In this document: positions 39,723 to 41,868 of the stretch, one piece after another
Layout: every line of letters starts with the position of its first letter
How positions within the stretch are numbered: position 1 is the first letter of the stretch
Origin: Octopus vulgaris
Taxonomy: Eukaryota
Assembly: GCA_951406725.2 (NCBI GenBank)
Contig: OX597831.1
Coordinates: forward strand, 28,830,001 to 28,894,000
Direction: 5' to 3'
Length of the DNA stretch: 64,000 bases
Position numbers and translations under genes: made by a program
Notes under the pieces: generated by a model
Told to the model about the DNA's origin: nothing
The model's database searches: none
The model's input: the letters and a program-made list of their open reading frames with translations, nothing else

Positions 39723-39789
39723 TCGTAAAAATAGTATCAGACTTATGATGCACGACGCAGGTTATTTGTTGGCTATGATGCAAGTTAAG

Positions 39790-39820
<31 letters not shown>

Positions 39821-39828
39821 TATATATA

Positions 39829-40471
39829 AATATGTTATAAAATATTATAATAATCCAGGTTTCTCGTAGCACTAGGCCACTTGGTGTGGAATAAATATAC
39901 TATTAAATTAGTATCTAATTCTCTCACCCTTATTAATTAATTATAATTATGCTGCATTTATTTCTAAATGCTGTATTTTGTTTTCCGTGAGAGTTTGGCG
40001 CGCTGTTGGTTGGGGCATTTGAATTATAACGTCCGATGTAATCAATTGAACCGCACGCGTAATTATCGTTATGGTAAAATCTGGCGTGTGATTGAGTGGA
40101 TTTCATCAAGATAGCCTTGGCTGAAGAGCTACAAATGGATTGCTGTAAGTAATATTACATTTAATTCATTAATAGCGAAACAATTGTCCCAAGATAATCT
40201 GTATTTTTGTTATTTTTTATTTGCCCTGTCCGTGTGAGCTAACAGTCGTACCGGCTTTCATGGGAAACATGTATTTTTCGTGGTTGAAACCTCTTGGATT
40301 AACTGGTGCTAGAGTGATCAATATAGTGAACACTCTCTTATATTTATTTTGTGAAAATATTATAATATGTTATAAAATATTATAATAATCCAGGTTTCTC
40401 GTAGCACTAGGCCACTTGGTGTGGAATAAATATACTATTAAATTAGTATCTAATTCTCTCACCCTTATTAA

Positions 40472-40480
<9 letters not shown>
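39829..40480 (+). mobile_element. Penelope-like pseudo-LTR / retrozyme-like unit in (TA)n, with 117-bp direct terminal repeat
   Basis: 39829-39945 repeated at 40364-40480 (period 535 bp), flanked on both sides by (TA)n, and containing the hammerhead. Confidence 0.7.
40116..40193 (+). ncRNA. Minimal type I hammerhead ribozyme (intact core)
   Basis: Stem I CTTGG(40116-20)/CCAAG(40189-93); CTGAAGA 40121-27; stem II GCTA/TAGC with extended hairpin (AATGGATT/AATTCATT, TGTAA/TTACA); GAAA 40177-80; stem III C-AATT-G with palindromic loop; GTC cleavage triplet 40186-88. Confidence 0.85.
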
Positions 40481-40504
<24 letters not shown>

Positions 40505-40520
40505 CTGGCTATGACACATG

Positions 40521-40606
<86 letters not shown>

Positions 40607-40608
<2 letters not shown>

Positions 40609-41868
40609 GTGTGGAAGCAAGGGTTGGAATCAAAAGGCCTTAGAATAAATGTAGCAAAGACCAAAGTATTAGTAAGCAGCAAGAGGTACTCAGCACACAC
40701 ACCCTCGGGTAGGTGGCCCTGCTCAATCTGTAGGAAAGGTACAGGTAGAAACTCCATAAGATGCACCCAATGTAAGTTATGGACACATAAGAGATGCAGC
40801 AACATTAAAGGGAAATTAACAGATAAGATAGCTTTCATGTGCGGCAGATGCACAGGGACAATAGACACAACAGACACTCAGAAAACAGATTCCATCACAC
40901 TCCAGGGAGAGAAACTAGAAGTAGTTGATAGTTTCCGCTACCTGGGTGACCAAGTTAGTAGCGGAGGTGGATACACAGAGAGTATCACCACTAGAATACG
41001 AATAGCCTGGGCAAAGTTCAGAAAGCTCCTACCCCTACTGGCAACAAAAGGTCTCTCCCTCAGAGCGAAAGGTAGATTGTATGATGCATGTGTGCGAACT
41101 GCCATGCTTCACGGTAATGAAACATGGGCAGTGACTGCAGAGGACATGCGTAGACTTGAAAGAAATGAAGCTAGCATGATCCGCTGGATGTGTAGTGTCA
41201 GTGTGCACGCAAGACAGAGTGTAAGCATCCTAAGAGAAATGCTGGATATAAGAAGCATCAGATGTGGTGTGCAAGAGCGACGCTTGCGATGGTATGGTCA
41301 TGTGCTGCGGATGGATGAAGAGAGATGTGTGAAGAAGTGCCACTCCCAAACAGTTGAAGGTATCAGGGGGAGAGGTAGACCCAGGAAGACATGGGATGAG
41401 GTAGTCAAGCATGACCTCAGAGCATTGGGCCTCACTGAGGCAATGGCGAAAGACCGAGATCTCTGGAGATATGCTGTGACTGCAAAGACCCGGGCTGCTT
41501 TCTGCAGCAATTCCACATACCCCCTACCCATTCAAAGTACCCCGGATCCCCAAAGTATCCCAGATCCCCAAAGTACCCCGGATCCCCAAAGTACCCCGGA
41601 CCCAGTTGCCCCCGTGCCGCTGGCACGTTAAAAGCTCGAACCGATCGCGACCAATGCCGGACCCCCGGCCCCTGTGCAGGTGGCACGTAAAAAGCACCCA
41701 ATCCACTCACGGAGTGGTTGGCGTTAGGAAGGGCATCCAGCCGTAGAAACTTTGCCAAATCAGACTGGAGCCTGGAGCGGCCCCTGGCTTCCCAGACCCC
41801 GGTCAAACCGTCCAACCCGTGCTAGCGCGGAAAACGGACGTTAAACGATGATGATGATGATGATGATG

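Follow-up and report, generated by a model that had tools for sequence, protein, structure and literature searches.

The locus at 39829-40480 of the window, by which we mean the whole 64-kb stretch of DNA analysed, is best read as a 1.2-unit, 5′-truncated copy of a non-coding 535-bp hammerhead retrozyme that was likely pasted into a TA microsatellite by the enzyme of a Penelope-like element (PLE), probably one of the Hydra clade; we put the probability of this reading at roughly 0.78. Assignment to the non-LTR retrozymes of animals, taken by itself, is very likely. The 535-bp family is genuine and young, a non-LTR retrozyme whose insertions bear PLE-type footprints; it belongs to a kind already known, and for it we infer cleavage, circularity of the template and the identity of the helper.

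Layout of the locus

With the unit numbered so that 39946 is position 1 and 40480 is position 535, the locus is arranged as follows.

39790..39828, no strand: left (TA)n target tract, merging with the AT-rich 5′ junction
39829..39945, plus strand: 5′-truncated upstream unit (unit positions 419-535), the "117-bp terminal repeat" or pseudo-LTR
39946..40480, plus strand: one full 535-bp unit (1-535), non-coding, GC 34%, strong fold of the plus strand
40116..40193, plus strand: type I hammerhead with long stem II and palindromic stem III; predicted cleavage after C40188 (unit position 243)
40311..40336, plus strand: hairpin immediately 5′ of end B, retained by sister families
40346..40350, plus strand: fixed end B (unit ~401-405), putative inner start of reverse transcription (RT), internal at this copy
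40350..40480, plus strand: ~130-nt "tail" spanning ends B to A
40418..40463, plus strand: stem-loop immediately 5′ of end A, with compensatory changes across sister families
40478..40480, plus strand: fixed end A (unit ~535), putative outer RT start, used by this copy
40481..40504, no strand: right (TA)n target tract

The initial annotation had described a 535-bp period with a 117-bp terminal repeat, a single hammerhead, no open reading frame (ORF) and (TA)n on both sides, and all of this holds: 39829-39945 and 40364-40480 match exactly over 117 nt at an offset of 535, a strict motif scan of both strands of the 64-kb window returned one type I hammerhead as its sole match, the longest ATG-started ORF of a unit dimer has 57 aa, and the TA tracts flank the copy directly. 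The 1.2-mer layout, attributed there to reverse transcription, is that of a 5′-truncated tandem copy. What has to be revised is the standing of the repeat. It is exact, but the 5′ ends of family members scatter over unit positions 1 to 510; because truncation points spread over the whole unit, the length of 117 bp is not a feature of the element, and the repeat is the 5′-truncated remnant of an upstream unit, not an LTR.

The GC content (0.336) and length of the unit (535 nt) are typical of non-LTR retrozymes (GC under 45%, a few hundred bases). Folded as a circle, the unit reaches -151 kcal/mol, compared with -110.6 +/- 6.4 for 40 dinucleotide shuffles and -112.7 kcal/mol for the antisense strand. 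A target-site duplication cannot be called within (TA)n, nor at the left junction, because the tract blends into the AT-rich 5′ junction. An identical 9-mer lies outside both tracts (39769-39777 and 40506-40514); it is not placed like a target-site duplication and is probably due to chance. Beginning directly after the second TA tract, 40607-41500 holds what we take, from its translation, to be a 5′-truncated RTE-like LINE fragment (C-terminal part of the reverse transcriptase), open over ~340 codons.

A young, multicopy family

Searching this 2.8-Gb, microsatellite-rich genome for copies and tandem arrays, as had been proposed from the window, yielded at least 1,090 units in tandem and inverted arrays: a 30-mer of the repeat had 1,090 exact matches, and the unit body as query gave 1,484 candidates, the best full-length matches being 99-100% identical. 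The first 100 listed 30-mer matches form 28 clusters, which puts the number of insertions at ~300 as a lower bound; 54 exact matches were found for a 29-mer from the hammerhead variant present in the window. Units sit at hundreds of loci with distinct flanks, and identical ones recur across many contigs, so the single-copy status named as a possible refutation does not apply. These genome copies establish the young, TA-targeting, non-coding, ribozyme-bearing retroelement family that the initial annotation had suspected.

Two sister families, F2 (35 matches) and F3 (9 matches), were reached from loose ends of public contigs and are ~67-72% identical to the unit over most of its length; a further one, F4, shows ~75% identity over short blocks. 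An ORF-linked parent was sought via the three sister families, which are non-coding wherever seen.

A type I hammerhead

The ribozyme consists of stem I (40116-40120/40189-40193), the core CUGAAGA (40121-40127), stem II (40128-40176), GAAA (40177-40180) and a palindromic stem III, and tandem copies of the family carry a type I hammerhead in each unit. Its 93-nt fold has a z-score of -2.2. Across 12 hammerheads of families F1-F3, 95.6% of cells are paired, compared with 26-42% in slid controls, and 8 of 21 pairs are changed on both sides (five of them in stem I), a covariation that comes from only three independent families. Motif and covariation together predict self-cleavage. Counting against our best explanation, no Rfam hammerhead model matched at gathering or E-value thresholds, and of nine Xenopus retrozymes assayed in vitro, eight failed to cleave, according to the available text of a 2026 preprint (10.64898/2026.07.22.740005). 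With one hammerhead only, the locus is not an "active" dimer by the 2026 preprint criterion. A plant LTR retrozyme (type III hammerhead, LTRs of fixed length) was rejected as the class, as the topology is type I and copies differ in the length of their repeat.

Unrelated hammerhead-bearing tandem or inverted elements also occur in TA tracts (L095, an array of ~375 bp period; L049:3990-4570; L060:1-560; L195; L208), and one tract is often shared by insertions of different families.

Two fixed ends

Forty insertions were compared. The hammerhead or body sequence led to 19 of them and the tail 30-mer to 20, the last being the one in the window; a second insertion at L051 is left out and L050 is merged with L031. 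The outer 3′ end of every arm (68/68) lies at one of two sites, end A (~535; 35 arms) or end B (~401-405; 33 arms), and nearly always runs into TA. Twenty-eight insertions are inverted, each with one A and one B end (28/28) and hence with the optional tail of ~130 nt at one end only; the other twelve have a single orientation, seven ending at A and five at B. Selection by tail would miss short BB insertions. The A+B rule is nevertheless not tail-biased, because 15 of the inverted loci were picked by body sequence and all of them obey it.

Either the A or the B arm may be the longer, and arms reach up to 13 units. The two arms of a locus are at most two substitutions apart in 24 of 28 cases; those of L044 are separated by 15 and those of L100 by 18, maybe through alignment noise, and both loci count against our best explanation. 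At the joint, the 5′ phases of the two arms are coupled, lying closer together than by chance (mean 78 vs 133 when shuffled, 0 of 20,000 shuffles reaching the observed value), also in the subset of 22 loci where an arm is longer than one unit (p 0.002). Sixteen joints overlap by 1-8 nt, a figure that BLAST over-extension may inflate.

Both ends are retained in F2, F3 and F4. The motif-to-motif tail measures 100-104 nt in the sister families vs 127 nt in the 535-bp family, and comparison across sister families finds compensation at 4 of 31 pairs in the stems adjoining A and B. A noisy regex count of ends at 30 F3 loci found both ends in 3 of 14 two-strand loci, all A+B.

Two insertions have unusual structures. 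At L045 (2932-3058 and 3738-3864), the only such case among the 40 loci, 127 bp of flanking sequence recur on the other side of the insertion as a perfect inverted copy, which suggests fold-back or template switching at the target. The complex joint of L032 (3113-3706), where the tail is duplicated and two short pieces are inverted, suggests a single insertion during which the template was switched several times.

The family shows three features of PLE-mobilised elements: 5′ truncation with a partial tandem pseudo-LTR, an inverted 5′-truncated arm and a tail at one end. The two-end rule with its tail is the PLE "tail" signature at three to four times the published length. In a literature search kept largely to journals outside subscription, no publication came up that describes retrozymes with fixed ends, a strict two-end rule or a tail as long as 100-130 nt.

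A proposed route of insertion

In the mechanism that we propose, arrays would be transcribed and the hammerhead would cut out monomers to be ligated into ~535-nt circles, a step that we moderately favour, the alternative being uncleaved multimers. A PLE protein would nick both strands of a TA tract, and the two DNA ends would prime reverse transcription at two fixed internal sites on the RNA, one at A and one at B. Each cDNA would travel a variable distance round the template; the two would then be joined head-to-head, or one arm would be lost, leaving at this locus the A-started arm of 652 nt. This two-priming scheme resembles the twin priming of L1.

A more speculative extension, to which we give rather poor odds, is that an old, independent lineage of ~530-nt circular RNA parasites mimics the start sites of the Hydra clade by structure and not by sequence. 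A dimeric enzyme would use both starts of a single circle simultaneously, writing a copy into each end of a broken TA tract, with the polymerases stopping in a coupled manner. If true, a single mechanism would cover retrozyme arrays and the inverted ends of PLEs.

Circle or multimer

Arms extend beyond the ribozyme cut site in 57 of 68 cases and stop near it in two, and cDNA started at A on a monomer that had been cut at both ribozymes could be no longer than 292 nt, whereas the arm in the window measures 652 nt. The template was therefore an uncut multimer or a ligated circle. The arrays speak to this choice. Thirteen of them, each with at least three full units (88 units in all), carry 77 fixed substitutions (present in all or all but one unit of an array), 24 singletons and 2 of intermediate frequency, a count from which positions 405-446, four positions at homopolymer edges and all indels had been removed; units differ in their homopolymer indels. 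That only 2 of 103 substitutions are intermediate implies repeated passage through one unit and favours a circle. The one-unit template was probably circular.

It is possible, if on balance doubtful, that the same element and enzyme used an uncleaved linear multimer transcribed from an existing array, the hammerhead acting at some other step and circles having no role in insertion. Two of the 13 arrays are mosaic (a variant in 9 of 14 units of L031 and in 4 of 12 units of L089), and since a single monomer circle cannot give such patterns, a multimer, template switching or gene conversion is needed there. Truncations also do not pile up at the cut site, and for the PAc element, in the available text of PMC11167929, uncleaved RNA is the main template and cleavage is dispensable in vitro, which we count against our best explanation. 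A linear multimer fits poorly with the single-unit bottlenecks implied by 77 fixed vs 2 intermediate substitutions, with arms of up to 13 units, and with the circles shown for other animal retrozymes (parts of PMC7229834).

Four presumed-RNA public contig sets cover 25-27 of 30 bins of the unit, as contigs that cannot show ends, strand or circles, and the adjacent RTE LINE reaches at least the same depth in these runs, so that the coverage weighs neither for nor against expression. In one of them, X6, loose letters look like what we take to be a cDNA template-switch adapter, a hint that the run is RNA-derived.

Two primings or one fold-back

The inverted arms could in principle stem from a single cDNA that folded back and was resolved by the endonuclease at a second site, in place of two primings on the RNA. 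Coupled joint phases, the near-palindromic nature of several joints and the inverted flank at L045 would all suit such a course, and Craig et al. have proposed endonuclease resolution as the source of the tail (PMC8557442, in part). We consider it improbable: arms of either kind, A or B, can far exceed their partner in length, single-orientation copies end at either A or B, and both starts have been mapped in vitro as RT initiation sites for PAc (available text of PMC11167929).

Candidate helpers

The initial annotation had left the choice at "Penelope pLTR or retrozyme". The element comes out as a retrozyme with Penelope-type ends; no copy of the unit linked to an ORF was found. The check for linkage to RT/GIY-YIG ORFs that this annotation had proposed was negative: no PLE ORF continues from the unit at any of the 40 insertions or at the sister-family loci, and PLE fragments near L045, L090, L098, L143, L153 and L232 stand apart from it. 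An autonomous PLE was rejected as the identity of the unit, the RT + GIY-YIG ORF being absent from the element. At L153, a minus-strand frame of 348 aa near an F3 copy encodes a PLE thumb-like protein fragment that resembles a Hydra protein.

This bears on the explanation already in print, in which retrozymes are tied to pLTRs and local amplification is proposed (Li, Clavereau and Pollet 2026, available text of 10.64898/2026.07.22.740005); a pLTR is defined as a truncated second copy in the curation guide (PMC8969392, in part). Applied here, the units would be 5′-truncated ends of an autonomous PLE not yet found, and the arrays would have grown locally by unequal crossing-over. The ends are indeed PLE-type, and the genome holds many PLE families, of which we sampled a part (150 and 116 scored from 6,136 and 11,814 candidates). 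We nonetheless think this quite unlikely: besides the missing ORFs, near-identical insertions at dispersed sites have 535-bp head-to-tail joints in each of their two arms, and a non-coding loop of ~530 bp is common to four sister families. An assembly artefact or chance repeat can be dismissed for the family even though assembly is difficult across TA tracts and tandem arrays and homopolymer indels vary, given the hundreds of distinctly flanked loci, the fixed ends, the diverged sister families and a contig of an independent run that crosses the head-to-tail joint, which also disposes of the overlap artefact named initially as a refutation.

Returning to a PLE enzyme acting in trans, young candidates exist in the genome.

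L188:3001-5943, minus strand: intact Hydra-clade PLE ORFs, with further families at L181-L214

Several of these Hydra-clade families (L181-L214) are young, with intact ORFs of ~840-1090 aa and long asparagine-rich linkers. Another hammerhead family could be traced to an ORF of 980 aa that bears RWK, DKT, CxCx5C, CxxC and CxH, marks of the Hydra clade according to Craig et al. The element ends in TA, carries a hammerhead with long stem II and has a tail of 119 nt, and it follows the two-end rule of the unit: among its 14 loci all eight inverted copies pair a long with a short end. Tails of other Hydra families measure ~85-125 nt by eye. No nucleotide homology to the unit was detected in 31 GIY-YIG loci and 34 Hydra loci sampled, the only match of the unit among the Hydra loci being a separate sister retrozyme. 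Hydra families at 61-100% RT identity showed no similarity to the unit. As a helper, judged from behaviour, the Hydra clade is reasonably likely.

A young Neptune/Nematis-type PLE (RT + GIY-YIG, 781 aa) was also considered as helper. It targets TA and has TA ends, but it has no similarity to the unit and its optional tail is only ~33 nt, seen by eye at 2 of 9 ends; it is ranked below Hydra. At L067-L076 the 781-aa ORF is accompanied by an upstream ORF of ~480 aa without a convincing Pfam match, and the pLTR carries a hammerhead-like motif with a UUGAUAA core, presumably a U3-A8 hammerhead variant.

Comparison with known systems

The following comparisons draw on the available parts of the cited sources. 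With the animal non-LTR retrozymes (PMC7229834; 10.64898/2026.07.22.740005), the family shares non-coding tandem units, one type I hammerhead per unit, low GC and PLEs alongside. Its unit of 535 nt exceeds the 170-400 nt of PMC7229834, while the preprint's span of 51-972 bp includes it. In the available text, neither source mentions fixed ends, arrays in inverted orientation or TA targeting for these retrozymes, and whereas 21 Xenopus retrozymes matched pLTRs (10.64898/2026.07.22.740005), no pLTR homology was found for our unit. Cervera and de la Peña (2020, PMC7229834) showed retrozyme circles and proposed mobilisation by PLEs that copy them; fixed PLE-type ends, the strict one-A-one-B rule and single-unit bottlenecks are footprints that separate such circle-copying from local amplification.

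The Hydra-clade PLEs (PMC8557442, with Hydra-1_Obim in its supplement) share (TA)n insertion, a canonical hammerhead, partial tandems, inverted 5′-truncated arms and a tail at one end, and the local Hydra families resemble the unit in tail length and long-stem-II hammerhead. Unlike them, the unit has neither an ORF nor detectable sequence similarity, and the published PLE tail measures 30-40 bp (PMC8557442). The non-autonomous Chlamys PLEs, such as MRC1 (PMC8557442), are likewise non-coding, pLTR-forming and found as multicopy head-to-tail insertions; they differ in that their 3′ end resembles their helpers and their clade lacks canonical hammerheads.

The value of the family is mechanistic, and it is relevant to how PLEs come by their inverted ends and tails, which lack an explanation so far. 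In vitro, PAc, the Poseidon element of Anolis, has been shown to nick both strands and to start RT at two internal sites (PMC11167929). With PAc the family shares an AT-rich target, a hammerhead near the starts and, in our model, nicking of both strands and two internal starts that define a tail. PAc is autonomous and its starts lie 30-40 nt apart, compared with ~130 nt in our unit. With an intact candidate helper in the same genome, the model proposed here is open to testing by the published in vitro PLE assay.
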